A stretch of 64,000 nt of DNA from Pseudomonadota bacterium (GCA_018816735.1 JAHIVH010000129.1:479-64478), one strand, 5' to 3'. Shown: positions 9,610-24,853, counted from the stretch's first letter. Notes: generated by a model not told the origin, from the sequence alone. Made by a program: numbers and translations.

Positions 9610-10695
9610 TTACTGATCGATTGTCATGTGACAAACCCCTGTGGGTGTATTCTGTTGATAGGGGAAATACTTTTTCTTAAACCATAGCGCCACATTTACA
9701 AGACCGATGAGAACCGGAACCTCCACAAGCGGTCCGATCACTGCTGCAAATGCCTCCCCTGAATTGATGCCAAATACCGCCACGGCAACCGCAATGGCCA
9801 ATTCGAAATTATTTGAAGCTGCTGTAAAGCTTAACGTTGCGGCCTGCTCGTAGGTTGCCTTTGCCTTGATGGAAAGATAGAACGATAAAAAGAACATGAT
9901 GACGAAATAGATACAAAGCGGTATGGCAATCCTTATCACATCCATGGGAAGCTGTACAATGTACTCCCCTTTAAGAGAGAACATGATAAGGATAGTAAAG
10001 AGAAGTGCGATCAATGTCAAGGGACTGATCCTGGGGATGAATTTGTTCTCATACCAGTCTTTCCCTTTCATTTTAAGGCCGACGTATCGTGTAAGCATTC
10101 CGCCAATAAAGGGGATTCCCAGGTAGATAAATACACTTTCCGCAATCTGACCGATGGATATATCCACAACAATACTTTCAAGGCCGATCATTTTGGGTAT
10201 CAGTGTAATAAAGATATAGGCATAGATGGAAAAGAAAAGAACCTGAAAAATCGAATTAAAGGCCACAAGGCCAGCGCAATATTCGGTATCACCTGATGCA
10301 AGATCGTTCCACACAATGACCATGGCAATGCACCGGGCAAGCCCGATTAATATCAGGCCTACCATATATTCATGATGGCCTGATAGAAAAAGAACCGCCA
10401 GAACAAACATCAGTACCGGGCCGATAATCCAGTTCTGGATCAGAGATAAGGCAAGGATTTTGAAATTTCTGAAGACTTCCCCCAGCTCTTCATATTTAAC
10501 CTTGGCAAGAGGCGGGTACATCATGAGAATAAGGCCAATGGCGATAGGGATGTTGGTCGTCCCGATCTGGAATCGATTGATGATGCCACGAATGTCCGGA
10601 TACAGATAGCCGATTGTGACACCGATGAACATAGCCAGAAAAATCCATAAGGTCAGAAAACGATCGAGAAATGAAAGTCGTTTTGATTGAGGCAT
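9610..10695 (-). CDS. acr3: Arsenite efflux permease, ACR3 family
   Basis: 361 aa and polytopic. The N-terminus '[25 protein letters not shown]' and overall pattern are typical of Acr3/ArsB(ACR3). It is the last gene of the ars operon. Confidence 0.88.
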
Positions 10696-10725
10696 ATGGT
10701 ATTTCCTTTAAAGGTTTAAAACAGG

Positions 10726-11433
10726 TTATAACCGGATAAACGGACGGATGATAAAATAAATTCCCAAAAGAGATATCATCACGCCGGCACACTTCCTGAA
10801 CCAGTTTCCAGCTCCCTGTAATGTAGTGTTCTCGAGAAATTTTTTGACAACAGCTGTTGAACTGCCGGAAATGGCAATGGGCAGACAATGACCCACTGCA
10901 AAAAGAAAAATCATCATGACACCAACAGCGATTTTTTCCTGGACAGTGATAATGGCAAGGATCGGTGCGATAAAGCCAAATGTGCATGAACCGGAAAGAA
11001 TACCATAGGAAAGGCCTAAGATAAATGCCCCCCAAACCCCTTTCAGATTTAACCGGTGCAAAAAATTTCCGGATGTCTGACAGGCGTCAACACCCATCAT
11101 GCCCAACGCCACCCATATCAGTATTGCGCCGACCATTATTTGCCAGTAGTTCCCAATGTCTCCCATCATTCGGCCAAGAAAAGCACAAATAATGCCTACA
11201 AGTGCGATGGTGATAAAAAGGCCGGTTGTGAAAGCGGCAGCATATACGCTTGCCTGTCCGGGTTTTAAAATTTGCTTCTGTCCGCCGACGTATGCGATGA
11301 TCAAGGGGATGGATGCCAGATGGCATGGGCTGAATATAACGCTGATCACACCCCAGAGGAAGCATCCGAGAGCGGCAATGCCTGTGCCACTTGAAATCCA
11401 TTCGTTTATGGTGATAAAAGCTGACTCAAACAT
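10726..11433 (-). CDS. ccdA: CcdA/DsbD-type transmembrane thiol:disulfide electron transporter
   Basis: Polytopic, with the two conserved membrane cysteines in 'FSPCHLASIPLI' and 'SGSCTFGFIAPIL'. I placed the start at the ATG at 11433 (MFESAF...), 7 nt after the upstream stop. The track ORF extends to 11475. Confidence 0.8.
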   Translation of the reverse strand: MFESAFITINEWISSGTGIAALGCFLWGVISVIFSPCHLASIPLIIAYVGGQKQILKPGQASVYAAAFTTGLFITIALVGIICAFLGRMMGDIGNYWQIMVGAILIWVALGMMGVDACQTSGNFLHRLNLKGVWGAFILGLSYGILSGSCTFGFIAPILAIITVQEKIAVGVMMIFLFAVGHCLPIAISGSSTAVVKKFLENTTLQGAGNWFRKCAGVMISLLGIYFIIRPFIRL

Positions 11434-11440
11434 AGTATAT

Positions 11441-11842
11441 TTAGTTTCCCGGATGATCTTCAGGAGCAGGAACACCCAGTTTTTTCAATTGAGCTGTAAT
11501 TTCCGTTTCACTGAAGAATCCTGTATGCCGGAATACTTCCTTGCCATCCTTATCAAAAAATATCTGCGTTGGGATGGCCTGTATGCCAAATCGCGTGGCT
11601 TGTTCCCGATTCTCCCAGACATCGATGAATACAATCGACGCTTTGCCCTGATATACTTTTTCCATTTTTTCCATAATCGGCGCCATCATTTTGCAGGGAA
11701 TGCATTTTTGGGCACCCAGATCGATCATGGTAACCATTCCTTTTTGAGGAAATGAATCGATGGTTTCAGCGGCAGACGTAATTGCAGTCAATGAGAAGAC
11801 AAAAAATATTCCTGTGAATAGCAAGAAAACGGCAGATTTCAT
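11441..11842 (-). CDS. Secreted thioredoxin-fold protein (TlpA/ResA-like), CxxC = 'CIPC'
   Basis: 133 aa with signal peptide 'MKSAVFLLFTGIFFVFSLTAITSAAE' and thioredoxin motif 'GAQKCIPCKMMAP'. Confidence 0.8.
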   Translation of the reverse strand: MKSAVFLLFTGIFFVFSLTAITSAAETIDSFPQKGMVTMIDLGAQKCIPCKMMAPIMEKMEKVYQGKASIVFIDVWENREQATRFGIQAIPTQIFFDKDGKEVFRHTGFFSETEITAQLKKLGVPAPEDHPGN

Positions 11843-11899
11843 GATATATGTCCTGTAGCATGATTAACCAAAGTCATCACACCTGTTTAATGTGGTTTT

Positions 11900-12133
11900 T
11901 TATTTTTCCAGCCAATCTTTAATCTCTTTTTCTTTAGGTACTCTACCTGAGATTTTAACTTCACCGTCAACAACAACCGCAGGTGTGCTGAAAACACCGA
12001 AACCCGCTATCTGCATTAAGTCCGATACTTTTTCAACCGTGGCATCGATCTTGTTTTTTGTGACATAATCTCTTAATAGTTTTTCTGTTTTTTCACATTT
12101 GGCACAACCCGGCCCCAATATTTTAATTTCCAT
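11900..12133 (-). CDS. Small cytoplasmic thioredoxin-fold protein (redox-active disulfide protein 2 type)
   Basis: 'MEIKILGPGCAKCEKTEKL...TPAVVVDGEV'. I set the start at the ATG at 12133 with a GGAGA SD. The track ORF's N-terminal extension would overlap arsC. Confidence 0.8.
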   Translation of the reverse strand: MEIKILGPGCAKCEKTEKLLRDYVTKNKIDATVEKVSDLMQIAGFGVFSTPAVVVDGEVKISGRVPKEKEIKDWLEK

Positions 12134-12161
12134 TATTTTCTCCTTTTTGTTCTCATATTCG

Positions 12162-12608
12162 TTATGCTTCCAATGATCCCGGCATGTTTTCAACAAATGA
12201 GCGAATCTCGTCTCTTATCCGTCTGTAATGGCTCAAAATGACTGATTTGTCCGTTTCTCCTTCCGACAATTTGGGAGGATCGTCAAACCCCCGATGAAGC
12301 CTTTTTGTTCCTCTTGGGAAAAAAGGGCACGTTTCATTTGCGTGACCGCACAATGTCACCACATAATCAAATTGTATTTCTGCCACTTCATCGACACTTT
12401 TTGAGATATTTCCGGAAATATCAATCCCCAGTTCCAAAAGAACGTCTATGGCATTAGGGTCTATGCCTTTTGGGGCAGTTCCGGCTGAAAAGGCGCAAAA
12501 CAGGTCGCCTTTAAGTTTATGGGTCAATGCCTCGGCCATCTGGCTCCTGCAGGAATTGCCTGTGCATAAAAACAGAATATTAAAGTTTTTTTGATGTGTC
12601 ATTATCAT
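12162..12608 (-). CDS. arsC: Arsenate reductase, LMW-PTP / thioredoxin-coupled type
   Basis: 148 aa. P-loop 'LCTGNSCRSQMAEA' (C-X5-R-S), redox cysteine pair in 'TLCGHANETCP', and 'FDDP' Asp. Confidence 0.92.
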   Translation of the reverse strand: MIMTHQKNFNILFLCTGNSCRSQMAEALTHKLKGDLFCAFSAGTAPKGIDPNAIDVLLELGIDISGNISKSVDEVAEIQFDYVVTLCGHANETCPFFPRGTKRLHRGFDDPPKLSEGETDKSVILSHYRRIRDEIRSFVENMPGSLEA

Positions 12609-12645
12609 AATACTTCCTTATTCATTAAGCATTTTCATCTGTGTA

Positions 12646-13701
12646 TCAGATAATCACGTTAAAAATATATCCCACAATCAGGATGCCGCACGTCACAATG
12701 GCAATGAACACAGCGATCAGTCTGGGTTTTAAGACTTTTCTCAAAATAACCATTTCAGGAAGTGATAGCGCGATGACACTCATCATAAATGCCAATACGG
12801 TGCCTAGTGCCGCACCTTTACCGATAAGCGCCTCCACCACGGGAATGATTCCTGCGGCATTTGAATACATGGGAACCCCAATAATTACAGCCAGGGGCAC
12901 AGACCACCAGGCCGATTTCCCCATGATTGACGCCATCAAGTTTTCCGGCACGTATCCGTGAATCACTGCGCCTACGCCTATACCGAGAATGACATATAGC
13001 CAAACCCTTCCGATAATTTCTTTGACAGCGTCCCATCCATAGATAATTCGGTCAGACCAGGAGCGTTTTTCGTCCGGAATGGCATGGGGGCCGGCATGGG
13101 TGTCCATAACCCAGTCTTCAACGCCATTTTCAAGTTTAAGGCGTCCGATGACCCATCCGGCAAGGATGGCAATGGACAAACCCGTGCCCAGGTAAATTGC
13201 TGCGACTTTCCATCCCAGAAGAGCGTATAGAAGTCCCAATGCAATTTCATTGACCATGGGTGCTGCAATCAGGAAAGAAAATGTTACACCCAAAGGAACG
13301 CCTGCCGTGACAAAACCGATGAAAAGAGGTACGGCAGAGCATGAGCAGAACGGTGTGACAATCCCCAATAATGCGGCTAAAACGTTTCCTGCGAATTCGC
13401 TTCTTCCGGAAAGAACCGCACGTGTTTTTTCCGGCGTAAAAAAGCTTCGGATAATTCCCACGCCAAAAACGACCAGGAAAAGCAGCATCATCACTTTGGG
13501 GGTATCATAAAGAAAAAATTCTACCGCTTTTCCCAGATGGGAGTTTTCAGCAACGTTTAAAAGCCTGTAGGTTACCCATGAGGATAATTCCGGGAGCATA
13601 CCATATAAAATCCACCAGACATAGGTAAGCATGGCTCCGGAGATCAGGTAAAAAATAAATTTTTCGTTTTTGATGGTTTTTGTATTCATATAGCTTTTCA
13701 T
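12646..13701 (-). CDS. Predicted permease of the ArsP/DUF318 type (two-repeat membrane protein with a CxC motif)
   Basis: 351 aa and polytopic, with 'IVTPFCSCSAVPLFIGF'. Its position between arsR and arsC fits the organoarsenical permease family. The family assignment is from memory, not a search. Confidence 0.7.
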   Translation of the reverse strand: MKSYMNTKTIKNEKFIFYLISGAMLTYVWWILYGMLPELSSWVTYRLLNVAENSHLGKAVEFFLYDTPKVMMLLFLVVFGVGIIRSFFTPEKTRAVLSGRSEFAGNVLAALLGIVTPFCSCSAVPLFIGFVTAGVPLGVTFSFLIAAPMVNEIALGLLYALLGWKVAAIYLGTGLSIAILAGWVIGRLKLENGVEDWVMDTHAGPHAIPDEKRSWSDRIIYGWDAVKEIIGRVWLYVILGIGVGAVIHGYVPENLMASIMGKSAWWSVPLAVIIGVPMYSNAAGIIPVVEALIGKGAALGTVLAFMMSVIALSLPEMVILRKVLKPRLIAVFIAIVTCGILIVGYIFNVII

Positions 13702-13727
13702 AAATATATTAAAAAGAATTCTGTCAT

Positions 13728-14072
13728 TTACCGACCGCAGATATCCTCGCGGCGGACAGATGGCAGCTTATCGATCATGCCTTTTATTGCAGGATCGTCC
13801 TCAAGCCAGTGTTTCAGGTTACCCAGCAGATTGGCTGCATAGGGGCTGTCTTTCCCGTCTGAAAGATAATAATTGACCCACTTTTCCGTTTTCCGGGAAC
13901 ATACAAGGCCAGCTTCTTCCAGTATTTTTAAATGCTTGGAAACCGTAGGTTGCGCTATTCCTAAAACCTCGCGAAGCTCGCAAACACACATGGTCTTATG
14001 CTGAAGCAATTTAACAATTTTTGTCCTGTTTGGATCTGACAGGGCTTTTATCACTTTGGTGAACGCGTTCAT
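13728..14072 (-). CDS. arsR: ArsR/SmtB-family metalloregulator
   Basis: 'LSDPNRTKIVKLLQHKTMCVCELREVLGIAQPTVSKHLKILEEAGLV' (wHTH with a CVC sensing site). I placed the start at the ATG at 14072 (AGGA SD). The track ORF starts at 14114. Confidence 0.9.
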   Translation of the reverse strand: MNAFTKVIKALSDPNRTKIVKLLQHKTMCVCELREVLGIAQPTVSKHLKILEEAGLVCSRKTEKWVNYYLSDGKDSPYAANLLGNLKHWLEDDPAIKGMIDKLPSVRREDICGR

Positions 14073-14082
14073 TTTTATCCTC

Positions 14083-14102
14083 ATATTACTATGCGGTAAT
14101 AT
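14083..14102. promoter_or_regulatory. Candidate ArsR operator: 7-6-7 perfect inverted repeat ATATTAC-N6-GTAATAT
   Basis: Read directly: atattac (14083-14089), tatgcg, gtaatat (14096-14102). It lies 11 nt upstream of the arsR ATG. The background is AT-rich, so a chance occurrence is possible. Confidence 0.3.
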
Positions 14103-14250
14103 ATACCACCACATCTATTCGTCAAGGATAATATGTTTGATTCTTGGAAAAAAGTTGTTTTCCGGGTGGAAATTCGGCATATTGGTCCTTGAATATAGTT
14201 TATAGGCTTTTAAACGTATTTTTGTAATGATGTGAACAGGATGTTTGAAA

Positions 14251-14652
14251 ATGACCAAAAAGATCATGATTATTGATGATGAACCGGATATCCGGACGTA
14301 TCTGATGGCAATTTTAGAAGACAATGGATTTTCAGTATGCACGGTTTTGGATAATACGGAGGTCAAAAAAGGGGTGCTTTCAGAAAAGCCCGACCTCATT
14401 ATTCTTGATATCATGATGCCCCAGCGGTCCGGCATTTCTATATACAAGGAGCTTCGGACATGCAGTGCCTTAAATGCCATACCTGTGGCATTGATCAGTG
14501 GCATGATGCCGGAAAAGGATTTTATTGAAAAGGAGTTTCCCGCTCTGGTTGATGATAAAAGCGTATCCCCGCCAGACGGGTATATTGAAAAACCGGTCCA
14601 GGTGGAGAAGCTTGTTGCGCTGGTGACACAGCTTGTTGAAGAAAGAGGATAG
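14251..14652 (+). CDS. Stand-alone response-regulator receiver (CheY-like), RR1
   Basis: 'KIMIIDDEPDIR...KPDLIILDIMMPQRSG' with no output domain. ATG at 14251; the track uses the TTG at 14245. Confidence 0.9.
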   Translation: MTKKIMIIDDEPDIRTYLMAILEDNGFSVCTVLDNTEVKKGVLSEKPDLIILDIMMPQRSGISIYKELRTCSALNAIPVALISGMMPEKDFIEKEFPALVDDKSVSPPDGYIEKPVQVEKLVALVTQLVEERG

Positions 14653-14654
14653 TG

Positions 14655-16460
14655 ATGCCTGAAAAAATTAAATTAATGGACTGGATCAGGGAGCATCTGT
14701 TTAATGTGGTGCCCATGTCCATCGCGGTGATCGATAGAGACTTCAACCTTGTATATGCAAACAAGCCTTTTGAGGAGAAGTTTGGAAAGTGGAAAGGGAA
14801 AAAATGTTTTTCTGTTTATAAAAGCAGCACAACCATGTGTTTGAACTGCAAGGGCGCAGAAGCGTTTCAGGACGGAAAACCACGGGTAAACGAGGAGATC
14901 GGTTTTGATAAATCAGGAAAACTCACCAAATATATCAAACATACAATGCCGGTGGTTGATTCAGATGGAAGCATTCCGTTTCTGGTTGAAATGGCCACAG
15001 ATATCACAGAAGCTTCTATCATCAAAAAGGAATATCAACTTCTCTTTGACCAGGTACCCTGCAGTATCCTGGTTATTGACAGGAATTTCAGAATTGTACG
15101 AACCAATAAAAAAATTCGCGAAACATTTGGTGATCTGACAGGAAAGTATTGTTACAGCTCCCTTAAGGGTTTCAACGATAAATGTCTGGAATGCACGGCT
15201 AGAGATACGTTTTCAGACGGTGAAATGCATACCGGGAATCATGTGTGGCGAACAAAAGATGGTGAAGATATTCATTCTCACGTATCAACGGTGCCTCTTT
15301 TCAAGGAAGACGGGACATTTGACATGGTGATGGAAATGGCTGTGGATATTACCCATACACTTGAACTCGAGGATGAATTGAAAATCGCCTATTCTTTCAT
15401 GGAAACCATGATCGCCACGGCTATTGACGGTATCATCGCCATTGACATTGAAGGCGACATTATCATTTTTAACAAGGCTGCGAGAGATATTTTCAATATT
15501 CATGACAAGCGGAAAATGACAAAGATAGAGCTTGAGGTACTTCTTCCCGAAGGATTTATGGCTCAGGTGCTCTTGGGACCGGGACATGTTTATCTTCCTG
15601 AAGCATATGTCAAAACCATAGACGATGATAAAAAGCCGGTTCGGTTGTCAGGAAATAAAATTGAGTTTGGAGACGGAAAGTCCGGTATGGCATTTTCCAT
15701 ACAGGATTTAAGGGAGTTAAAGCGCCTTGAATCGGAAAAGCTCGAAGCCGAACGAATGGCTGCTGTGGGACAGACAGTGGCAGGCCTTGCCCATGGTGTC
15801 AAAAATCTGATAACCGGCCTTGAAGGCGGTATGTATATGATGAATTCCGGAATGAAGAAAGGCGATGTGGATAGAATTCAAAAAGGGCTTGAAATGCTCG
15901 ATAGAAATATCTTAAGGGTGTCGACTTTCGTAAAGGAATTTCTTAATTTTTCCAAAGGCCGTAAAATAAAAGTGGGTGAATGCGAACCTGGAAAAATTGC
16001 AAGAGACGTTGTGGAACTTTATGCCAGCCAGGCAGGAAAATTTTCTGTCGAGCTGATTTGCGAAACAGACGACAATATCATGCCTGCGCTTATGGATGGA
16101 GAAGGCATTCATGAATGTCTGACCAATCTCGTGGGAAACGCCATTGATGCGTGCCGGATGAGCGACAACCAAGGTGGCAATCATGTCTGGGTTAAAACTC
16201 ACGAAAAAGATGATGTGATTGTCTATGAAGTTGTTGACGATGGATGTGGAATGGATTACGAAGTCAAGAAAAAAGTCTTTACCAATTTTTTTACGACAAA
16301 AGGTCTGGGCGGAACTGGCATCGGCCTGTTAACGACCAAGAAAATCGTTCAGGAACATGGCGGGAAAATAGAACTTCAGTCTGAGGAGGGCAAGGGAACC
16401 ACTTTCAGGATTCGCCTGCCGAGAAACCGACTTCCCAAACCTGAATCAATTGATATTTGA
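14655..16460 (+). CDS. Soluble multi-PAS sensor histidine kinase with two C-x10-C-x2-C PAS domains (HK1)
   Basis: No TM segment. 'GKKCFSVYKSSTTMCLNCKG' and 'GKYCYSSLKGFNDKCLECTA'. H-box 'AGLAHGVKNLITGLEGG'. ATPase boxes 'NLVGNAIDA', 'DDGCGM' and 'GGTGIGL'. Confidence 0.9.
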   Translation: MPEKIKLMDWIREHLFNVVPMSIAVIDRDFNLVYANKPFEEKFGKWKGKKCFSVYKSSTTMCLNCKGAEAFQDGKPRVNEEIGFDKSGKLTKYIKHTMPVVDSDGSIPFLVEMATDITEASIIKKEYQLLFDQVPCSILVIDRNFRIVRTNKKIRETFGDLTGKYCYSSLKGFNDKCLECTARDTFSDGEMHTGNHVWRTKDGEDIHSHVSTVPLFKEDGTFDMVMEMAVDITHTLELEDELKIAYSFMETMIATAIDGIIAIDIEGDIIIFNKAARDIFNIHDKRKMTKIELEVLLPEGFMAQVLLGPGHVYLPEAYVKTIDDDKKPVRLSGNKIEFGDGKSGMAFSIQDLRELKRLESEKLEAERMAAVGQTVAGLAHGVKNLITGLEGGMYMMNSGMKKGDVDRIQKGLEMLDRNILRVSTFVKEFLNFSKGRKIKVGECEPGKIARDVVELYASQAGKFSVELICETDDNIMPALMDGEGIHECLTNLVGNAIDACRMSDNQGGNHVWVKTHEKDDVIVYEVVDDGCGMDYEVKKKVFTNFFTTKGLGGTGIGLLTTKKIVQEHGGKIELQSEEGKGTTFRIRLPRNRLPKPESIDI

Positions 16461-16488
16461 CAATATAACTGGTGAAATTACCTTACCA

Positions 16489-18243
16489 ATGAACGGGAAA
16501 AAAAATCTGGTATTATTCCTTGGAGACGGGGTAAATAATCTTCATCTGATTGCAGAGTGTCTGGCAAGAGAGATAAACAGGGAGCCTGTGGAATTTATCA
16601 GTGCATCCATGACGCCACCTCTGATTAATCCGTTAACCGCCAAGGTCATGCAGGCTTCGGGATTTGATATCTCAACGCTTCCTCTGCGTTCACTTCTTGA
16701 TGTGGAACCGTTCATGTTCGATTTGATTATCACCGTTGGAGATTTTGATCAGGATTGCAGACCCACGCTGCCGGGCATGCCGCCTCATTTTCACTGGGAT
16801 GTGCCTGATCCTCCGCCAGGTACAGATGTTGAAGAACTTTTCAGGTCCTTGAGAGAAGCAAAGGACATGATCCTCAATAAACTGGATACCATATTTTCTT
16901 CAGGACTATTGACGGCCCTTTTTGTAACACGACGAAAACTTGAAGTGATTATCGATAACCTCCTGGATGGTGTTATGGCGCATACCACCAATCGACGGAT
17001 TTTCTTTTTCAATAAGGCTGCGGAGAATATTACCGGATACAGACGGGAAGATATTCTGGGGAAAGACTGCCATGATGTTTTTCCTGGCAGGTTTTGCGGT
17101 GGGGATTGCGAATTCTGCGAAAGTGCAGAGAAAAATATGAAAGGTCATGTCATGAAAAAGGAAATCTTTTTCAGACGTCTGGAGGGAGATGAACGTGTTC
17201 TTAAAATGTCCATCATGCCGCTTTCAGATGAAGAGGGAAAGGATATTGGCGCACTTCTTTCATTCAGGGATGATACTGAACTGGATCAACTGAAAAGACG
17301 GCTAAGACATCATCATACGCTTGGAAATCTTGTGGGGAAAGACCCTAAAACACTGGAGCTTTTTGATCAGATCAGAGAAGTGAGCTCGGTAATGGTTCCG
17401 GTTTTGGTTGAAGGGGAGAGTGGCACAGGAAAAGAACTGGTGGCAAATGCCATTCATGATATTGGTCCCAGGACCGGGAAGCCTTTTGTTGCCATCAATT
17501 GCGGCGCATTGCCGGAAGGGATTCTCGAAAGTGAACTTTTTGGCCATGTCAGTGGTGCGTTTACAGGTGCCGTTCAGAACAGGAAAGGCCGATTCGAACT
17601 GGCTGACGGGGGAACGATTTTTCTGGACGAAGTGGGTGAACTGACGTCTGCCATGCAGGTTAAGCTGCTTCGCGTGCTTCAGGAAAAGAGATTTGAAAGG
17701 GTTGGGGGAGAAAAGACCATTCAGGTCGACGTCAGAGTGATTAGCGCTACAAATCAGAATTTAAAAGAGCTGATTGACAAAAAAATGTTCAGACGGGATC
17801 TGTATTACAGACTGTGCGTCATGCCTATTTCTCTTTTGCCTTTAAGGGAAAGACGCCTTGACATACCCACGCTGGTGGAACATTTTCTTGAAGTGATTGC
17901 AAGTGAGGTCAAGCGGTCTGTCCTGGTACCGTCCAATGATGTGATGGATGCATTGTCCCGTTATGACTGGCCGGGAAACGTAAGAGAGCTTCGAAACGCA
18001 ATCGAATACACGTATGTAAAATGCAGAACCGGAAAAATTATCCTGGACCACCTGCCTCCGGAGATTGTGAATTTCAAACAGAAAATAAAAGTTAAACCTG
18101 GCCCCTCTCTCAAGCACAACAAGGAGGAAGTGATCCTTGCGCTGTCACAATCTGAAGGCAACAGAAAAGAAGCTGCCAAAATTCTTGGCATCGGCCGAGC
18201 GACACTTTACCGGTATCTGGATGTTTATGAGCTTAATTCCTGA
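16489..18243 (+). CDS. Sigma-54-dependent transcriptional activator (bEBP): degenerate ArsC/LMW-PTP-like domain, Cys-rich PAS, AAA+, Fis-type HTH; no receiver domain
   Basis: AAA+ 'GESGTGKE', 'GAFTGA', 'ESELFGH', 'WPGNVREL'. C-terminal HTH 'NRKEAAKILGIGRATLYRYL'. PAS 'GKDCHDVFPGRFCGGDCEFCES'. The N-terminal ~130 aa is colinear with the ArsC at 12162-12608. The start is either the ATG at 16489 or the TTG at 16450. Confidence 0.9.
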   Translation: MNGKKNLVLFLGDGVNNLHLIAECLAREINREPVEFISASMTPPLINPLTAKVMQASGFDISTLPLRSLLDVEPFMFDLIITVGDFDQDCRPTLPGMPPHFHWDVPDPPPGTDVEELFRSLREAKDMILNKLDTIFSSGLLTALFVTRRKLEVIIDNLLDGVMAHTTNRRIFFFNKAAENITGYRREDILGKDCHDVFPGRFCGGDCEFCESAEKNMKGHVMKKEIFFRRLEGDERVLKMSIMPLSDEEGKDIGALLSFRDDTELDQLKRRLRHHHTLGNLVGKDPKTLELFDQIREVSSVMVPVLVEGESGTGKELVANAIHDIGPRTGKPFVAINCGALPEGILESELFGHVSGAFTGAVQNRKGRFELADGGTIFLDEVGELTSAMQVKLLRVLQEKRFERVGGEKTIQVDVRVISATNQNLKELIDKKMFRRDLYYRLCVMPISLLPLRERRLDIPTLVEHFLEVIASEVKRSVLVPSNDVMDALSRYDWPGNVRELRNAIEYTYVKCRTGKIILDHLPPEIVNFKQKIKVKPGPSLKHNKEEVILALSQSEGNRKEAAKILGIGRATLYRYLDVYELNS

Positions 18244-18289
18244 ATGGGGATCAAGGGAAGGGCTATGATGTCTACTACAGGGGTTTCCA

Positions 18290-19237
18290 ATGGATAAACC
18301 GCTACCCATTTTATACAGAAACGAATACAATATGGGCTTTATGGGCGTTCAGAGACTCCACCCCTTTGATTCGGAAAAATTTGGTAAAATCAAACGTTAT
18401 CTGATGACCCATGCAGGCCTTGAACCCTCATCTTTTGTTCGACCGGATCAGGCAATCAGTGAAGCGGAACTTCTCATCGTTCATACAAAAGCGTATCTTG
18501 AGTCTTTGAAGAAGTCTTCGACTGTGGCAAGAATTGCAGAGCTGAAACTCCTTGCTTTTTCGCCCAATCTCTTACTCCGGAAATTTTTTCTGGCACCAAT
18601 GAGATATGCAACTTTTGGGACCATTAAGGCTTCCGAGCTTGCGCTTGAAAGAGGTTGGGCCATTAATCTTTCAGGCGGGTATCATCACGCAAAACGCGTT
18701 GATGGGGACGGCTTCTGTTTTTATGCCGACATCCCCCTTGCCATCCGGAAATTGAGAGAGAAGAATAATTCCCTTAAAGCGTTGGTCATAGACCTTGATG
18801 CCCATCAGGGAAACGGTATTGAAGATTATTTTAAGGATGACAAAAATAGTTTTATCATGGATGTGTATAATCGGGAAATCTACCCTGAAGATGAGCCCAT
18901 GAAAGCACATATTGATTTTCATTTTCCGGTTGCCTCAGGCACCGGAGACAACGACTACCTCTCTCTACTTGAAACAAATGTCCCCCATGCCATTCGATCA
19001 TCAGGCCCGGACATCATTTTTTATAATGCAGGCACAGATATTCTTGATGGTGATCCACTGGGAAAGATGAACATTACGGATAACGGCATTGTCAAACGGG
19101 ATGAAATCGTTTTCAAGGCAGCCATGGACGCTAAAATCCCCATCGTCATGGTGTTGTCCGGCGGGTATACCAAACGTTCCGGTTTTGTGATCGGCAGATC
19201 GGTCACGAATCTTTTAAAGACCGTATTGCCGCGATAG
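18290..19237 (+). CDS. Zn-dependent deacetylase/deacylase of the histone deacetylase family, class IV (HDAC11-like)
   Basis: 'WAINLSGGYHHAKRVDGDGFCFYADI', 'VIDLDAHQGNG', 'YNAGTDILDGDPLG', 'VLSGGYTK'. All catalytic and Zn motifs are present. It is colinear end-to-end with my recollection of human HDAC11. Confidence 0.88.
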   Translation: MDKPLPILYRNEYNMGFMGVQRLHPFDSEKFGKIKRYLMTHAGLEPSSFVRPDQAISEAELLIVHTKAYLESLKKSSTVARIAELKLLAFSPNLLLRKFFLAPMRYATFGTIKASELALERGWAINLSGGYHHAKRVDGDGFCFYADIPLAIRKLREKNNSLKALVIDLDAHQGNGIEDYFKDDKNSFIMDVYNREIYPEDEPMKAHIDFHFPVASGTGDNDYLSLLETNVPHAIRSSGPDIIFYNAGTDILDGDPLGKMNITDNGIVKRDEIVFKAAMDAKIPIVMVLSGGYTKRSGFVIGRSVTNLLKTVLPR

Positions 19238-19440
19238 ACAGCACCTTTCTGTTTGTGAAAGAAAAGATTTTTGAGAGCATATTATTTAATATCTATTTTA
19301 TTATTCATTTTTATATTGCATCAATCAAGGATTATTGTCATTTATAAACGATTTGCCCATCATTATCATTTATCCATTTCATTCCTTCGTCTCACATTAA
19401 ATTCCCTTATAAGAATAATAATTAAAACTGTTTCGTGTCC

Positions 19441-19657
19441 CGTGTCTCAAGTTCGTTTCAGGTCACTTCTAAAGACATGCCATAATTAACGCATCTTCTG
19501 ATTAATTCGTAATTTCAGCCAACTATAAAAAGCGATCCATTGATCAGGACGCGGATTCCTCTGAATTATCCTGAGACACGATAAATATTCAACATCATAA
19601 AAATATATAACTAATTGTAATTATTTATATATTTTAATTTAATTTATTAGAGACACG
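19441..19657. repeat. Three copies of (T)GAGACACG in the sigma-54 promoter upstream region: candidate enhancer (UAS) sites
   Basis: cgtgtctca at 19441-19449 (minus orientation), tgagacacg at 19572-19580, and gagacacg at 19650-19657 abutting the -24 element. They are embedded in very AT-rich DNA. Confidence 0.45.
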
Positions 19658-19659
19658 TC

Positions 19660-19675
19660 TGGCACGAAATCTGCT
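19660..19675 (+). promoter_or_regulatory. Sigma-54 (-24/-12) promoter TGGCACgaaatCTGCt
   Basis: TGGCAC-N5-CTGC has the correct GG-N10-GC spacing, 46 nt upstream of the ATG at 19721. A bEBP gene lies 1.4 kb upstream. Confidence 0.6.
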
Positions 19676-19720
19676 CTTAACTCTATCGGCACATCTGAGG
19701 TTCAAAAAAAGGAAAACGCG

Positions 19721-19945
19721 ATGGATGGGAAAACCACAACAGACCTTGCGAACAAACATTTAAAAATGGTGATCGACCTTTGCTACGAGATGCTGGAATT
19801 GGCAGATCATGGTGATAAATTCCGGCTGGATACCGGTTGTGGCGTCGTATATGGGACTTTGCGGGATGTGGCGTATAAGGTGAGAAAACTCGCTGAGAAA
19901 GAACTTGTGCAGCATGGTACGGAAGAGAGTTACCAAGGAGAATAG
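19721..19945 (+). CDS. Small hypothetical protein (74 aa), first ORF behind the sigma-54 promoter
   Basis: ATG preceded by 'AAAGGAAAACGCG'. Helical-looking, non-low-complexity sequence 'LKMVIDLCYEMLELADHGDKFRLDTGCGVVYGTLRDVAYKVRKLAEKEL'. No family recognised. Confidence 0.55.
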   Translation: MDGKTTTDLANKHLKMVIDLCYEMLELADHGDKFRLDTGCGVVYGTLRDVAYKVRKLAEKELVQHGTEESYQGE

Positions 19946-20046
19946 ACAGCGTACATACCTTGAATAAGGTTTATTTTTTAACCATAATTAACCGGAAGAG
20001 GCGGGATGCAAAGGTTTCCTCTTCCTAAAAAAAGGAAAAACTGAAG

Positions 20047-20430
20047 ATGAGCGAAAAGAAAAAAATTTTGGTAGTGGATGATGAAAAAGACGTCCTGACC
20101 TATCTGACCACACTTCTTGAAGACAACGGCTATGAAACTGTTTCTGCCGGAGATGGACTGAAAGGGTTTGATCTTGCCAAGAGCGAAAAACCGGATCTGA
20201 TCACCCTGGATATCACCATGCCGGATCAATCCGGTGTAAGGACATATCGCTATTATAAGGAAGATGAAGAATTAAAAGATATACCTGTCATCATTGTCAC
20301 GGCTATTGGCGATTCCATGAGAAGTTTTTTGAAGAAACTGGCTGGTTTTAAGGAACCGGAAGGATTTATGAACAAACCGATAGATGAAGCCGAACTTTTG
20401 AAAATGGTTTCGGATCTTTTAAATAAATAA
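20047..20430 (+). CDS. Stand-alone response-regulator receiver, RR2
   Basis: 'KILVVDDEKDV...KPDLITLDITMPDQSG...IPVIIVTA', 127 aa, no output domain. Confidence 0.9.
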   Translation: MSEKKKILVVDDEKDVLTYLTTLLEDNGYETVSAGDGLKGFDLAKSEKPDLITLDITMPDQSGVRTYRYYKEDEELKDIPVIIVTAIGDSMRSFLKKLAGFKEPEGFMNKPIDEAELLKMVSDLLNK

Positions 20431-20488
20431 GCCTTTGTTGTCAGAAGAAGATACCCATTCTGTCAATGAGTGATTAAAGGAGAATGAA

Positions 20489-21427
20489 ATGTCTCAATTT
20501 GTGTATGTTGTTGCGTATCTGTCGATCATTGTTTTTTTTGTTGCGGTCGTAAAAAAGATCAAGAATTATCTGGACAAACCCATTCATGTCAGGTGGGAGC
20601 TTTATCCGGTTGCCCATGAGGGCGGTGGGCGAGATCAATATGGTGGAAGCTATCTGGAAGACGTGGGCTGGTGGGGAAAAGAACGGGACGTGTCTATGAT
20701 CGGTGAGTTAAAGGTCATGATTCCCGAAATCCTTTTGCTTAAAGCAGTATGGGAACATAATCGTCCCCTGTGGTATGCGACTTACCCCTTTCATCTTGGA
20801 CTTTATCTGATTGTCGGGTTTATAGGAACCCTTCTGGTTACATCCGTTTCAGGACTGATCGGCCTTGAACATGCGTTTTATATGTTACCTGTGTCTGCGT
20901 TGACCAATTTGCTTGGCCCTGCCGGATTCATTTTATGCATCGCAGGGGCTTTGGGCCTTATTTATAAAAGGATGACCGATCCGGGGTTAAAAAATTATTC
21001 AAGCCCCGGGCATTTCTTCAATCTGATGCTCTTTATTGTGACCATGGGTGTGGCAACACTTACCTGGCTTTTTGTCGATCCTTCATTTCAACTTACCAGA
21101 CAGTTTGTGTCCAATCTGATCAGTTTCAACATAGCGCCGATTGACAGTTCATTGTTTATGGTTCAGGTGATTTTGGGCGTTCTGACCCTGGCATACATTC
21201 CTCTGACGCATATGTCCCATTTTTTTATGAAGTATTTTCTCTATCACGATATCAGGTGGGGTGACGAGCCAAATATCAATACCCCGAAAACCGATGCAAA
21301 GATAGGTATTGTGTTGAATTATCCCGTAAGCTGGTCTGCGTCTCACATTGCAGGACACGGCAAGGAAACCTGGGCTGAAGTCGCCACTTTTAACCCCGCA
21401 GCAGAACCGGAAGAAGGAAAGGAGTAA
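20489..21427 (+). CDS. NarI/DsrM-like integral-membrane cytochrome b (quinol-interacting subunit)
   Basis: 312 aa with multiple TM helices carrying conserved His ('YPFHLGLY', 'IPLTHMSHFFMKYFLYHD'). It is paired 3 nt upstream of an HdrD/DsrK-like gene. Confidence 0.7.
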   Translation: MSQFVYVVAYLSIIVFFVAVVKKIKNYLDKPIHVRWELYPVAHEGGGRDQYGGSYLEDVGWWGKERDVSMIGELKVMIPEILLLKAVWEHNRPLWYATYPFHLGLYLIVGFIGTLLVTSVSGLIGLEHAFYMLPVSALTNLLGPAGFILCIAGALGLIYKRMTDPGLKNYSSPGHFFNLMLFIVTMGVATLTWLFVDPSFQLTRQFVSNLISFNIAPIDSSLFMVQVILGVLTLAYIPLTHMSHFFMKYFLYHDIRWGDEPNINTPKTDAKIGIVLNYPVSWSASHIAGHGKETWAEVATFNPAAEPEEGKE

Positions 21428-21430
21428 AAA

Positions 21431-23026
21431 ATGAGCAATAAAAATGTGAATATCAAAGATATCGGCAAAGATACAAAAAAACTGGCAAGTGTCGCCAATG
21501 AAGATCTAATGCCTCTCCCCGGATGGGATGCAGAAGAAAATGAATGGGCGGAAATTCCTGCAGAGACAAAGGGAAAATATGCCTGTATTCTGGATGATGT
21601 CTGTATACTGCCCATACCCATGCCCAAAACCGTCAAGGAAGAGGAAGCGCTCGTCAACACGTTTATTGATGGCATGAGAAAGCTTTTTACCAAGGAAAAC
21701 AACTGGACATTTCTGGCCATGCTCGATACATCCATGGAACATTGTGCCAAATGCAATACCTGCTCAGAAGCCTGCCATCTCTACGAAGCAACCGGTGGGC
21801 ATGAAATGTACCGTCCGAATTTCCGTTCGGAGATTTTCAGAAGAATATATAAAAAATATGTTAAAAAAGAACCCTTCGCCAAATGGCGAAACGGAGATGT
21901 CGATCTGAACTGGCGTACGATCGCGAGACTTGGAGAGCTGGCCTATCGGTGTAATGTCTGCAGGAGGTGCGCTCAAACTTGCCCGATTGGTGTGGATAAT
22001 GCGCTGATTGCCCGTGAAATCCGAAAGATTTTCAGTCAGGAATTGGGGATTTCGCCCCCTGAACTTCATGAAAAAGGCTCCATGTATCAGCTTAAAACCG
22101 GTTCTTCCACCCAGATGACCAAGCTGGTTGTCAAGGATAACGTGGAATTTATTGATGAGGACTTTTCCGAAGAAACGGGTTTTGAATTCAAAACCCCCTG
22201 GGATGTGGAAGGTGCGGATATTCTTTTGATTCATAATGCCGGTGAGATCATGGCCTGGCCGGAGAATATCGCCGCGTTTTCTATTATTTTTGAGGCCGCC
22301 GGTCTGTCATGGACGCTTTCAAGTGACCTGGCAGCCTATGACAGCATTAACTACGGTGTGTTTTATGACGATGTCCAGTTTGCCAGAACAGCCATTCTTC
22401 AGGCCCAGGCAGCCAAAAAACTCGGTGTGAAAAGAATCGTTCTTGGAGAGTGTGGGCACGCGCATAAAGCATTGACAGTTATTGCAGACAGGGTTCTTCC
22501 TGAACCGTTGAAAGTGCCCAGAGAAAGTTGCTTTCCACTTTTAAGGGATATTGTCATGTCAGGTAAAATCAAGTTCGATCCTGAGCGCAACAATTTTCCG
22601 GTCACCCTTCATGATCCGTGCAATGTGACACGCCTGATGGGAATCATCAAACCGCAGCGTGAAATCATGGCAAAACTCTGTCCCCAATTCCGTGAAATGA
22701 ATCCTCATGGGCCGCATAATTATTGCTGCGGTGGGGGAAGCGGATATGCCATTATGTCCAGAAACAATATTCCGGAATGGCGATATAAAATTACGGGCAG
22801 GAAAAAAATGGAGCAGATCTTTAATGCCTTTTCAGATTGCAGAGGGCCGGAAACAAAAAAATACGTCTGTGCCCCCTGTTCAAATTGCAAAGGGCAGCTG
22901 AGAGATCTTTTTGAAAGGTATGAAATGCTCGAAAAGGAAAATATGACTTACAGCGGGGTTGTCGAACTGATTGTAAATGCAATGGTTGATGTTGAGCCGG
23001 GTTTTATCAAGTGGGGAGAAGAGTAG
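21431..23026 (+). CDS. HdrD/DsrK-like iron-sulfur protein with CCG domains
   Basis: Two ferredoxin motifs 'CAKCNTCSEACHLY' and 'CNVCRRCAQTCPIG'. CCG-domain signatures 'HDPCN' and 'NYCCGGGSG...CAPCSNCKGQL'. Confidence 0.8.
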   Translation: MSNKNVNIKDIGKDTKKLASVANEDLMPLPGWDAEENEWAEIPAETKGKYACILDDVCILPIPMPKTVKEEEALVNTFIDGMRKLFTKENNWTFLAMLDTSMEHCAKCNTCSEACHLYEATGGHEMYRPNFRSEIFRRIYKKYVKKEPFAKWRNGDVDLNWRTIARLGELAYRCNVCRRCAQTCPIGVDNALIAREIRKIFSQELGISPPELHEKGSMYQLKTGSSTQMTKLVVKDNVEFIDEDFSEETGFEFKTPWDVEGADILLIHNAGEIMAWPENIAAFSIIFEAAGLSWTLSSDLAAYDSINYGVFYDDVQFARTAILQAQAAKKLGVKRIVLGECGHAHKALTVIADRVLPEPLKVPRESCFPLLRDIVMSGKIKFDPERNNFPVTLHDPCNVTRLMGIIKPQREIMAKLCPQFREMNPHGPHNYCCGGGSGYAIMSRNNIPEWRYKITGRKKMEQIFNAFSDCRGPETKKYVCAPCSNCKGQLRDLFERYEMLEKENMTYSGVVELIVNAMVDVEPGFIKWGEE

Positions 23027-23167
23027 GCCCCAAAAAGTCAGTCCTCACCTCTTGCTTAAAGGACGAATAAACCTGAAACAGGCGGCCTTTTCGTATGTGT
23101 GGTATCGCTTTGATCAATACCCCTCCCGCATACGCCAAGGCCGCCAAAATAAAAAAGGACTTATAAA

Positions 23168-23695
23168 ATGGCACACGCATCTGAAAAGAAAATTCTGGTT
23201 GTTGATGATGAACCGGATGTCAGGCATTTTCTCGCCGCATGCCTGGAAGACGCAGGGTTCAATGTGGAAACTGCTGTGGATGGTGTTGACGCCCTTGAAA
23301 AGGTTAAAACAAATACACCTGATCTGATAACTCTTGACATGGTCATGCCCAGAAGGTCAGGCATTAATTTCCTGCGAAAATTAAGAAAAGAGAAAAAGGA
23401 ATGGGCCAATATTCCGGTAATTGTCATCACTGCCCATGCCAGAGATGAATTTGGAAGTGAAGACATTCAGGAATTCCAAGCTTTTGCAGCACGTCATCGA
23501 CCACGATGCACGCTTGAAAAACCGATTACCCCATCGAGTCTTGTCAAGGCCATCAGCGAGATTTTAGACGTTGAAACCGATATGCTGGAAAAAAGCCGGA
23601 AAGAGGGAGATGACAATCGTGAAGACCTGATCCGGATGATACAACAGACCGATCCGGAAACATTGAAAAAGATTCAGACGATGTTGAACAAGTAG
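23168..23695 (+). CDS. Response-regulator receiver with a ~50-aa acidic/helical C-terminal tail, RR3
   Basis: 'KILVVDDEPDVR...TPDLITLDMVMPRRSG...IPVIVITA', then 'DVETDMLEKSRKEGDDNREDLIRMIQQTDPETLKKIQTMLNK'. Confidence 0.88.
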   Translation: MAHASEKKILVVDDEPDVRHFLAACLEDAGFNVETAVDGVDALEKVKTNTPDLITLDMVMPRRSGINFLRKLRKEKKEWANIPVIVITAHARDEFGSEDIQEFQAFAARHRPRCTLEKPITPSSLVKAISEILDVETDMLEKSRKEGDDNREDLIRMIQQTDPETLKKIQTMLNK

Positions 23696-23794
23696 GTTTT
23701 ATTCAATTACCCGTAATTGATTCTGACCGTAATTGGGAAACGTGGAGCCTTGTCCTTTGAGGATAAATAGAATGTCAACTGTCAGGTTTTTTCT

Positions 23795-24853
23795 ATGAAT
23801 CAAAATTTTCAAGTCATTTCGTCTTCTCCGGACCAGCTTTATCAGATGATTATTGATCTTCTTCCGTGCTATATTTCCATTCAGAATAATGACCTGGAAA
23901 TTCTCTATACCAATAAATCGTTCTTGAATGATTTTGGTGAGGCCACAGGCCGGAAATGTCATGATGTTCTCAAATGCTCCGCATTTATGTGCGGGGAATG
24001 CCCGGTTAAAAAATCGTTTGAAGACAATGCCATTCATTTTGGCGAGGATTCCGTACTCACAAGAGAGGGGGCACCGATTCAACTTCTGGTATACGCCGTT
24101 CCGATACCTGCCGGAAGGGACCGATCGGTGATAGAGTTTTCCATTGATATTTCAAAAATTAAAAATACCCAGAAAGAACTGGCGCTTCTGGGGCGATCAG
24201 TAGCCCTTATCTCTCATGGCATCAAAAATTTGCTGGAAGGGCTTCATGGCGGGGAGTATGTGGTTGATGAAGGATTAAGAGAGGAAAACTGGCCGCTTGT
24301 TGAAAAAGGGTGGAAAGTCGTAAAAAATAACATCATTGATATTTCAATGATTGCTCAAAATATTCTTTATTCTTCCAAAAAGAAGGCATTGACCATCGAA
24401 AAGGTAAAGCCAGGCGAGATGGTCAAACGCGTTGTCAGCATGCTTAATGAAAAAGCCCTTTCAATGGGCGTTTCTCTGCGAGCCGAGGTCAATCCCTATC
24501 TGCCTGAGGCCAGGCTCGACCAGTTCACCATAAAAAAAATGTTGATTAACCTGATCTCAAATGCACTTGAAGCCTGTGAAAGGGATAGGGAAAAAAACAA
24601 TCATTTTGTGGTGGCAAGGGCACTTGCCTATAACGAGCTTCAGTATAAATTTGAAGTTGAAGACAATGGTATCGGCATGGATGAAGACATGCGAAAAAAA
24701 ATTTTCCAGGAGTTTTTTTCAACCCGGGGGACGAGTGGCACCGGTTTGGGCCTGTCGGTTGTTGAAACCATTGTAAAAGAACACCAGGGCAAGATTGAAG
24801 TTGAATCCGTGCCCGGCCAAAAAAGTCTTTTTCGAATTATTTTTACCTATTAA
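23795..24853 (+). CDS. Soluble PAS histidine kinase with a 4-Cys motif (HK2), paralogous to HK1
   Basis: 'GRKCHDVLKCSAFMCGECPV'. H-box 'ALISHGIKNLLEGLHGG'. 'NLISNALEA', 'DNGIGM' and 'GTGLGL'. No TM segment. Confidence 0.9.
   Translation: MNQNFQVISSSPDQLYQMIIDLLPCYISIQNNDLEILYTNKSFLNDFGEATGRKCHDVLKCSAFMCGECPVKKSFEDNAIHFGEDSVLTREGAPIQLLVYAVPIPAGRDRSVIEFSIDISKIKNTQKELALLGRSVALISHGIKNLLEGLHGGEYVVDEGLREENWPLVEKGWKVVKNNIIDISMIAQNILYSSKKKALTIEKVKPGEMVKRVVSMLNEKALSMGVSLRAEVNPYLPEARLDQFTIKKMLINLISNALEACERDREKNNHFVVARALAYNELQYKFEVEDNGIGMDEDMRKKIFQEFFSTRGTSGTGLGLSVVETIVKEHQGKIEVESVPGQKSLFRIIFTY

Follow-up and report, generated by a model that had tools for sequence, protein, structure and literature searches.

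The DNA analysed here (64,000 nucleotides of a Pseudomonadota bacterium, GCA_018816735.1; hereafter the window) comes from what its sequence suggests is a sulfate-reducer-like bacterium. It encodes three regulators whose PAS domains contain clustered cysteines: two histidine kinases (HK1 and HK2) and a bacterial enhancer-binding protein (bEBP), that is, a sigma-54 activator. The genes and their motifs are listed below; "triad" denotes the three Cys residues common to the four domains, and OrpR is a studied iron-sulfur (Fe-S) sensor with which they are compared further on.

14652-16460, plus strand: HK1, 602 aa; PAS1 (triad)-PAS2 (triad)-PAS3 (no Cys)-DHp (AHGVKN H-box)-HATPase_c; orthologues in loci L001 and L083
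14796-14849, plus strand: motif match in HK1 PAS1, GKKCFSVYKSSTTMCLNC
14805-14849, plus strand: HK1 PAS1 triad, C52-x10-C63-x2-C66 (regular-expression match, in-register alignment)
15141-15194, plus strand: motif match in HK1 PAS2, GKYCYSSLKGFNDKCLEC
15150-15194, plus strand: HK1 PAS2 triad, C167-x10-C178-x2-C181 (regular-expression match, AlphaFold2 model)
16450-18243, plus strand: bEBP, 597 aa; degenerate ArsC/LMWPc-like N-terminal domain, PAS (four Cys), sigma-54 AAA+ (GAFTGA), AAA_lid, HTH_8
17059-17118, plus strand: motif match in bEBP PAS, GKDCHDVFPGRFCGGDCEFC
17068-17118, plus strand: bEBP PAS, C207-H-D209-x6-C216-x3-C220-x2-C223, the OrpR triad with its acidic residue and a fourth Cys
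23795-24853, plus strand: HK2, 352 aa; minimal soluble kinase, PAS (triad)-DHp (SHGIKN)-HATPase_c
23948-24001, plus strand: motif match in HK2 PAS, GRKCHDVLKCSAFMCGEC
23957-24001, plus strand: HK2 PAS, C55-x5-C61-x4-C66-x2-C69, in which the triad is C55/C66/C69

The regular expression G[KR]xC-x(4-14)-CxxC matched exactly four times in the six-frame translation of the whole 64 kb window. When run against the Pfam PAS families, as the original prediction for this DNA had suggested, all four motifs fell within PAS_4/PAS_9 matches; scores were above the gathering thresholds except in HK2, where PAS_4 passed (28.0 vs 23.1 bits) and PAS_9 missed (26.2 vs 27). A local hidden Markov model scan detected five PAS domains in the window, and the triad was present in four of them, the exception being HK1 PAS3. 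The four triad-bearing domains aligned in register, with three invariant Cys columns. The proposal of clustered Cys residues at a common PAS position in four domains of three regulators was thus confirmed by the pattern search, this alignment and the conservation in orthologues given below, and the segment 14805-14849 that had been singled out begins with the C52 codon of HK1 and ends exactly with its C66 codon. None of the motifs had been thought to be a CxxCH site, and inspection of all four bore this out (CxxC and the next residue read CLNCK, CLECT, CEFCE and CGECP). The description of the regulators as soluble is reasonable, because no 19-residue segment of HK1, bEBP or HK2 had a mean Kyte-Doolittle hydropathy above 1.6, the rule-of-thumb transmembrane threshold; the maximum in HK1, exactly 1.6, lay within PAS3. 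In the Pfam scan, bEBP matched PAS_9/PAS_4, Sigma54_activat, AAA_lid_14 and HTH_8 and had no Response_reg domain, and HisKA_3 was undetected in both kinases.

Two further positions accompany the triad: a Glu on I-beta, the last-but-one strand, and a His at the start of G-beta. Both are present in HK1 PAS2 (His193 and Glu228) and in HK2 (His81 and Glu114). HK1 PAS1 has the Glu (Glu113) and an Arg (Arg78) at the usual position of the His, and in bEBP a Leu takes the place of the Glu. The HK1 PAS1 triad is kept in L001 as NRKCYSVYKNRNSLCLDC, that of PAS2 is kept in L001 and L003, and the HK2 orthologue in L083 reads GKLCHIAYKNSSKKCANC...H.

A bEBP scan of a genome collection retrieved the syntenic loci L001-L003 from Desulfobacteraceae/Desulfobacula-type metagenome-assembled genomes (MAGs), at 66-72% identity. 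All four bEBP Cys residues were kept in these loci, as were both HK1 triads wherever HK1 was present. More generally, the triad was retained across orthologues spanning 50-72% identity and was invariant in L001, L002, L003 and L083. Among 120 HK2 homologues (47-61% identity), 114 had the C-x10-C-x2-C pattern, and a His exactly 12 residues after the last Cys was found in 114 of 115 members of the HK2 family; Cys61 of HK2 was not conserved. The fourth Cys of bEBP was conserved within its own clade. Three or four Cys residues per domain had been counted originally: the triad stands, and so does the fourth Cys of bEBP within its clade, but the fourth Cys of HK2 does not. Because the triad is conserved across orthologues, it is taken as a functional site, and on these alignments the clustered cysteines are a conserved feature of the PAS core and not noise.

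The closest HK2 homologues, P0164 and P0165 (60-61% identity), retain four Cys residues at shifted positions: in their variant motif, KC[FH]xxxRCSCFxxxxCPVEK…C, the first Cys of CxxC is gone and other Cys residues occur at +6, at +8 and after the His. Ligand positions thus seem to drift in these proteins while the Cys count stays. A protein 100% identical to HK2 is on record as P0163. The N-terminal domain of bEBP (residues 14-141, window 16489-16872) is homologous to the neighbouring ArsC/LMWPc arsenate reductase (12162-12608; 27% identity, E = 6e-11) and lacks the catalytic cysteines of the CX5R motif (LFLGDGVNNL vs LFLCTGNSCRS); the L083 bEBP orthologue (443 aa) is entirely without it.

Location of the triad in the PAS fold was examined with an AlphaFold2 model of HK1 PAS2, built from a 51-sequence alignment, in which residues were placed by secondary structure. 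The model had a predicted local distance difference test score of 95.6 and the classic PAS topology, and Foldseek matched it to many PAS structures with probability 1.00. Helix E-alpha begins with the first Cys, the loop after it contains the second, and the third directly precedes helix F-alpha; strand G-beta begins with the conserved His, and the Glu is in the middle of I-beta. Among the matches listed by Foldseek for the Protein Data Bank (PDB), the closest solved structures were generic PAS domains (DosP, NifL, LOV) at no more than 25% identity, and no solved member of the triad subfamily was apparent among the 50 listed. In profile alignments the first triad Cys fell on the photoactive Cys of LOV (GRNCRFLQG) and the I-beta Glu two residues before the flavin-contacting Gln of LOV, a spacing that puts this Glu and the Gln on the same face of the strand. 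On the basis of the model and these LOV alignments, the triad residues are predicted to surround the canonical PAS cofactor pocket.

We further searched a profile of the four triad domains against 1.84 billion representative proteins and found 1280 representatives at E < 1e-30. Among the best 150 proteins of this search, 247 of 719 PAS domains carried the triad, and one or more triad domains occurred in 120 proteins, frequently as tandem arrays of three to five. The few named homologues came from Desulfobacterales, Desulfococcaceae, Thermodesulfovibrionales, Ca. Magnetomorum and one Promethearchaeota (Asgard) archaeon, all anaerobic lineages, and the named triad proteins carry only the label "PAS domain-containing protein". 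Giant multi-PAS proteins were also present, such as P0008 (1709 aa), P0011, P0015 and P0014 (the latter from Promethearchaeota), with three to five or more near-identical triad repeats (GEKCYRVYEGxxKxCxGCP).

Comparison of 240 triad domains with triad-less PAS domains of the same proteins revealed which other residues are co-conserved. The I-beta Glu occurred in 89% of triad domains, this position being Gly in triad-less PAS; the His at +12 from the last Cys occurred in 56% and a Pro directly after that Cys in 58%, and a Tyr, His or Phe after the first Cys was likewise co-conserved. The Gly-(K/R)-x prefix included in the original motif is indeed present but generic to PAS domains, since its Gly was found in 92% of triad-less domains; therefore, only the cysteines are special. 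An A-beta Cys ("VPC") was considered as a fourth ligand and rejected, because just 26% of triad domains had it and the HK2 orthologue of L083 has a Val at this position. Literature searches for a C-x10-C-x2-C, Zn or Fe-S PAS family, of incomplete coverage, gave nothing beyond OrpR and NreB. The kinase-type C-x10-C-x2-C/His/Glu PAS domain therefore appears to be an abundant variant with no description in the literature searched.

Judged by sequence and architecture, the closest studied relative of these domains is OrpR and not NreB. OrpR (DVU2106) of Desulfovibrio vulgaris Hildenborough is a PAS-AAA+-HTH sigma-54 activator with an Fe-S PAS domain, in which a redox-sensitive [4Fe-4S]2+ cluster is converted to [3Fe-4S]1+ on mild oxidation; the cluster needs C52, C61 and C65, and a conserved D/E54 is close by (PMC8359166). 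The orp operons are named there only as orp3-orp4-orp5 and orp7-orp8-orp9 (PMC8359166). A homologue search with the bEBP PAS domain alone gave just 7 fragmentary hits; the OrpR orthologues that stand for OrpR in the sequence comparison were reached through genome loci and synteny instead. The pattern C-x-[DE]-x6-C-x3-C was found in six other bEBPs of the genome scan (L004-L007, L010 and L015), and if the L010 protein is read from an internal Met (MAKLNID..., an unverified start chosen by hand), its residues would be numbered C52/D54/C61/C65 as published. The L007 and L010 genes adjoin Nitro_FeMo-Co and MinD/ParA-Fer4 genes. Genes of these kinds were reportedly described as the content of the orp operons by Fievet et al. 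in 2011. Given the Cys pattern and the orp-type neighbours, both loci were treated as containing OrpR orthologues; they share 38% identity with bEBP over PAS-AAA+-HTH. In a joint alignment, the three Cys columns were invariant across OrpR orthologues, bEBP and the three kinase PAS domains, with small indels absorbing the difference between x8/x3 and x10/x2.

This comparison also bears on the fourth ligand. In the six bEBPs that have the three-Cys OrpR pattern, the I-beta Glu was always present and the fourth Cys always absent, and all five members of the window's bEBP clade had the fourth Cys and a Leu or Ile at the I-beta position. Such a reciprocal pattern resembles a ligand swap and fits a model in which the fourth ligand is either the I-beta Glu or the fourth Cys. 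By its Cys pattern, the bEBP domain is an OrpR-kind PAS domain with an added fourth Cys, apparently a form not described previously.

By analogy with OrpR, we give about even chances to the following reading: each of the four PAS domains holds a Cys-ligated metallocofactor in the canonical pocket, most likely a redox- or O2-sensitive Fe-S cluster. Its ligands would be the first Cys, which begins helix E-alpha at the site of the photoactive Cys of LOV domains, the two Cys residues of the loop entering helix F-alpha and, as a fourth, the I-beta Glu and/or the G-beta His in kinase-type domains and the fourth Cys in the bEBP clade. Oxidation or loss of the cluster would change the conformation of the PAS domain. 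The anaerobic lineages of the named relatives fit such an O2-labile cofactor, and the conserved gene cassette around the three regulators, which encodes redox machinery, was also counted in its favor. Its other features are listed below.

14245-14652, plus strand: stand-alone receiver (REC) protein, directly upstream of HK1 (Pfam)
19441-19674, plus strand: candidate regulatory region with CGTGTCTCA (19441), TGAGACACG (19572), AGAGACACG (19649) and a sigma-54-type promoter TGGCACGAAATCTGC (19660-19674)
19721-19945, plus strand: conserved 74-aa open reading frame (ORF), first gene after the promoter; conserved in L001 and L083
20047-20430, plus strand: stand-alone REC (Pfam); conserved in L001 and L083
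20489-21427, plus strand: DsrM/NarI-like membrane cytochrome b subunit (Nitrate_red_gam)
21431-23026, plus strand: DsrK/HdrD-like subunit with Fe-S and CCG domains (Fer4_8, CCG; NCBIfam DsrK 315 bits, below the 400-bit cut-off)
23168-23695, plus strand: REC with a C-terminal extension, directly upstream of HK2; conserved in L083 and L082
24869-25255, plus strand: stand-alone REC, directly downstream of HK2; conserved in L081-L085

The order in the window is HK1, bEBP, sigma-54 promoter, 74-aa ORF, REC, DsrMK-like complex, REC, HK2 and REC. The cassette is conserved in the Desulfobacterales MAG L083 (GCA_018648885.1), where HK1 and bEBP are followed by an extra DsrMK-like pair with cytochrome c3, a 73-aa ORF, REC, DsrM-like, DsrK-like, REC, HK2 and REC. 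The earlier suggestion that the three regulators share a signal is backed by their conserved grouping in this further Desulfobacterales genome. In the window rnfCDGEAB comes after HK2-REC, and in L083 REC-HK2-REC is followed by arsR-arsP. HK2 was therefore rejected as a dedicated regulator of the adjacent rnf genes: in L083 the REC-HK2-REC genes follow the DsrMK-like genes without rnf, and because of this absence HK2 is assigned to the DsrMK-like unit.

The sigma-54-type promoter TGGCACGAAATCTGC lies 61 nt upstream of the small ORF, and its L083 counterpart, TGGCATAAATAATGC, is at -60. The motifs CGTGTCTCA and TGAGACACG occur at matching distances in the window, L001 and L083, and CGTGTCTC/GAGACACG are motifs in the candidate bEBP target region (19430-19680). 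Reliance on promoter matches was limited to this one site, positionally conserved in L083. It supports, but does not prove, that bEBP drives the operon of the small ORF, REC and the DsrMK-like genes. In the proposed mechanism, the cluster state of bEBP would gate its sigma-54 AAA+ domain directly, because the protein has no receiver domain, and bEBP would act at the promoter at 19660 on an operon of the small ORF, REC, the DsrMK-like complex, REC, HK2 and REC. In HK1 and HK2, autophosphorylation would be set by the cluster state, and so would phosphotransfer to the four stand-alone REC proteins. In combination, the triad sensors may tune the DsrMK-like redox complex by redox potential or O2, in a direction that we can at present only infer.

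Several other features were observed in and around the cassette. The 74-aa ORF (…VIDLCYEMLELADHGDKFRLDTGCGVVYGTLRDVAYKVRKLAEKEL…) has two conserved Cys residues and matched no Pfam or NCBIfam family. The window has no counterpart of the second DsrMK-like pair with cytochrome c3 (Cytochrom_CIII) that lies between bEBP and the small ORF in L083 (3215-5530). An HDAC-family gene (18290-19237, plus strand; Hist_deacetyl E = 1e-55) separates bEBP from the remainder of the cassette in the window and looks like a local insertion, because it is absent from this position in L001 and L083. The arsR-arsP genes flank the cassette in both genomes: in the window upstream on the opposite strand (9610-14114, minus strand), together with ArsC, a thioredoxin-like gene, DsbD_TM and ACR3, and in L083 downstream on the same strand (11839-13398). 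The only perfect TGGCAC-N5-TTGC sigma-54 consensus of the window (11375-11389, minus strand) is in the thioredoxin-like/DsbD_TM/ACR3 part of this ars cluster, where it falls within the 5' end of the DsbD_TM ORF as listed; the real start of this ORF may lie downstream of the listed one.

The original suggestion of a metal, an Fe-S cluster or a redox-active thiol pair named a sensible class of functions for what is a conserved site in the PAS core. Several observations weigh against an Fe-S cluster and the mechanism built on it. Identity to the OrpR orthologues over the PAS domain alone was just 28-30%, and indels were needed to align the ligands as equivalent, because the spacing is x10/x2 in the kinases and x8/x3 in OrpR. 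The contrast between Glu and the fourth Cys among bEBPs may represent a single evolutionary event, and a general rule by which loss of the Glu is accompanied by an extra Cys was rejected for the kinase-type family, in which only 4 of 26 Glu-less domains had one. The sigma-54 consensus was not enriched in the window (60 matches vs 61 expected), and L001 was without a clean GG-N10-GC promoter match. In addition, Zn too is classically bound by Cys3-His and Cys4 sets, redox-active disulfides likewise have the geometry of a CxxC at the N-terminus of a helix, and Fe-S, Zn, disulfide and heme are not separable by sequence.

Among these alternatives, Zn(II) bound by the triad and the His, the Glu or the fourth Cys, either as a structural staple between E-alpha and F-alpha or as a zinc-thiolate redox switch of the RsrA/Hsp33 kind, is unlikely, though the likeliest of them. 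It would agree with the near-invariant Cys3-His set of the HK2 family (triad in 114/120, His in 114/115), with the Cys4 set of the bEBP clade, with one CxxC knuckle at the start of a helix in the AlphaFold2 model and with the very high confidence of that model for the loop without a ligand, which is common for structural Zn sites; PAS domains such as WalK can also bind Zn, although through His/Asp/Glu ligands. However, OrpR, the sole biochemically studied domain with such a Cys pattern, holds Fe-S and not Zn, HK1 PAS1 has no His, the named relatives from anaerobic lineages point to an O2-labile cofactor, and the best co-conserved non-Cys residue is the Glu deep in the pocket on I-beta (89%), which we consider unusual for a structural Cys-rich Zn site. 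A metal-free thiol-disulfide switch, formed by CxxC with or without the first Cys, could sense thiol redox or polysulfide/persulfide and might be linked to the neighbouring DsrK-like reductase; the CxxC directly before helix F-alpha in the model has a thioredoxin-like geometry, and the DsrK/HdrD-type CCG protein of the cassette belongs to a family that reduces disulfides or trisulfides. We regard this switch as improbable, since three and not two Cys residues are invariant and occur with a buried Glu and His, a combination typical of ligand sets. Protein disulfides would also have poor access to a switch inside the PAS pocket, and the OrpR precedent is an Fe-S cluster. Binding of a b-type heme through Cys (and His) axial ligation, with the Cys-Pro after CxxC as a heme-regulatory motif, is very improbable. 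The Pro that follows the last Cys in 58% of triad domains (CGECPV in HK2), the His or Tyr after the first Cys and the presence of heme PAS domains such as DosP among the nearest solved folds would be consistent with it, but there is no Cys-Pro in HK1 PAS1, HK1 PAS2 or bEBP, three invariant Cys residues are not needed for such a heme, and the alignment has no Fα His of the FixL/DosP type.

OrpR is the second Fe-S PAS besides NreB. If the triad domains do bind Fe-S clusters, what is now a curiosity among PAS cofactors would expand to at least hundreds of sequence clusters, judged by the 1280 representatives at E < 1e-30 and the triad in 120 of the best 150 proteins. Tentatively, and with less confidence than an even chance, we suggest that the kinase-type domain, with its C-x10-C-x2-C pattern, a Glu in the pocket and in most cases a His, represents a very large unrecognised family of metallo-PAS sensors, probably Fe-S, which occurs in bacteria and archaea, has few named members, these being from anaerobic lineages including an Asgard archaeon, and is often present as three to five or more tandem copies. 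As part of the same suggestion, the two kinases and the sigma-54 activator, the latter sensing its signal directly, would form in Desulfobacterales a fixed cassette of three such sensors that tunes a DsrMK-like quinol:disulfide oxidoreductase to the cellular redox state. The fourth ligand of the cluster would then be the I-beta Glu, which a fourth Cys could replace, and not D/E54 as proposed for OrpR. The comparison offers the triad, the I-beta Glu and the G-beta His as residues for mutation, and the bEBP clade would provide a natural experiment, in which the Glu is replaced by a fourth Cys, for the assignment of ligands, including the fourth ligand of OrpR. Regulation of the DsrMK-like complex is, to our knowledge, poorly understood, and the conserved cassette ties redox sensing to this membrane complex of sulfate reducers.

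Among known systems, NreB had been named originally as the analogy, and it is not the best comparator. Its PAS domain binds a [4Fe-4S] cluster in Staphylococcus carnosus and a [2Fe-2S] cluster in Bacillus licheniformis (PDB 9WEX), with ligands that run CxxC-x11-C (Cys63, 66 and 78 in 9WEX; PMC13478379). Like the window's kinases, NreB has a cytoplasmic PAS domain in a soluble histidine kinase; three or four Cys residues between B-beta and G-beta bind its Fe-S cluster, and the triad Cys residues are in the same region, with a cofactor that we infer here. Three-Cys coordination with a non-Cys fourth ligand is also documented for NreB. However, the order CxxC-x11-C(-xxC) is the reverse of C-x10-CxxC, and none of the motifs found here (C-x10-CxxC, C-x8-C-x3-C-x2-C and C-x5-C-x4-C-x2-C) matched that of NreB. 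In searches with the triad profiles, 9WEX scored weakly (E = 3.2e-3 in the 34th row and 1.3e-3 in the 42nd row), below LOV, NifL, DosP and KCNH PAS domains, and it was not among the 50 PDB matches listed by Foldseek for the HK1 PAS2 model. In addition, NreB is a Firmicute protein with a HisKA_3 core and a NarL-type partner (NreC), whereas the kinases here have a DHp of the AHG(V/I)KN type and stand-alone REC partners without HTH. A 2023 census of PAS domains gave NreB as its sole Fe-S entry, found the NreB motif in nine domains and did not mention OrpR (PMC10468136). LOV domains are among the closest solved folds (template modelling score about 0.8), and their photoactive Cys has the E-alpha position of the first triad Cys; unlike LOV, the triad domains have no flavin-binding Arg, Gln or Asn and have two more invariant Cys residues, at an identity of 15-25%.

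OrpR is closer in several respects. It shares with bEBP the PAS-AAA+ (sigma-54)-HTH architecture without a receiver domain and the pattern C-x-[DE]-x6-C-x3-C at the same place of the PAS domain (C207-H-D-x6-C216-x3-C220 in bEBP). On the other hand, bEBP differs from OrpR in the fourth Cys, the lack of the I-beta Glu and the added ArsC-like N-terminal domain, and it adjoins the DsrMK-like cassette, HK1 and an HDAC-family gene and not orp operons. That bEBP is OrpR itself was ruled out, as its neighbours are not ORP/Nitro_FeMo-Co genes and MinD-like Fe-S ATPases, and because of these different gene neighbours we regard it as a paralogue, not an orthologue, of OrpR. The kinase PAS domains differ from OrpR in the C-x10-C-x2-C spacing, a variable residue at +2 and histidine kinase rather than AAA+ output, and their family has an added conserved His. 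OrpR belongs to a deltaproteobacterial anaerobe and has a redox-related regulon, as is predicted for the window's regulators.

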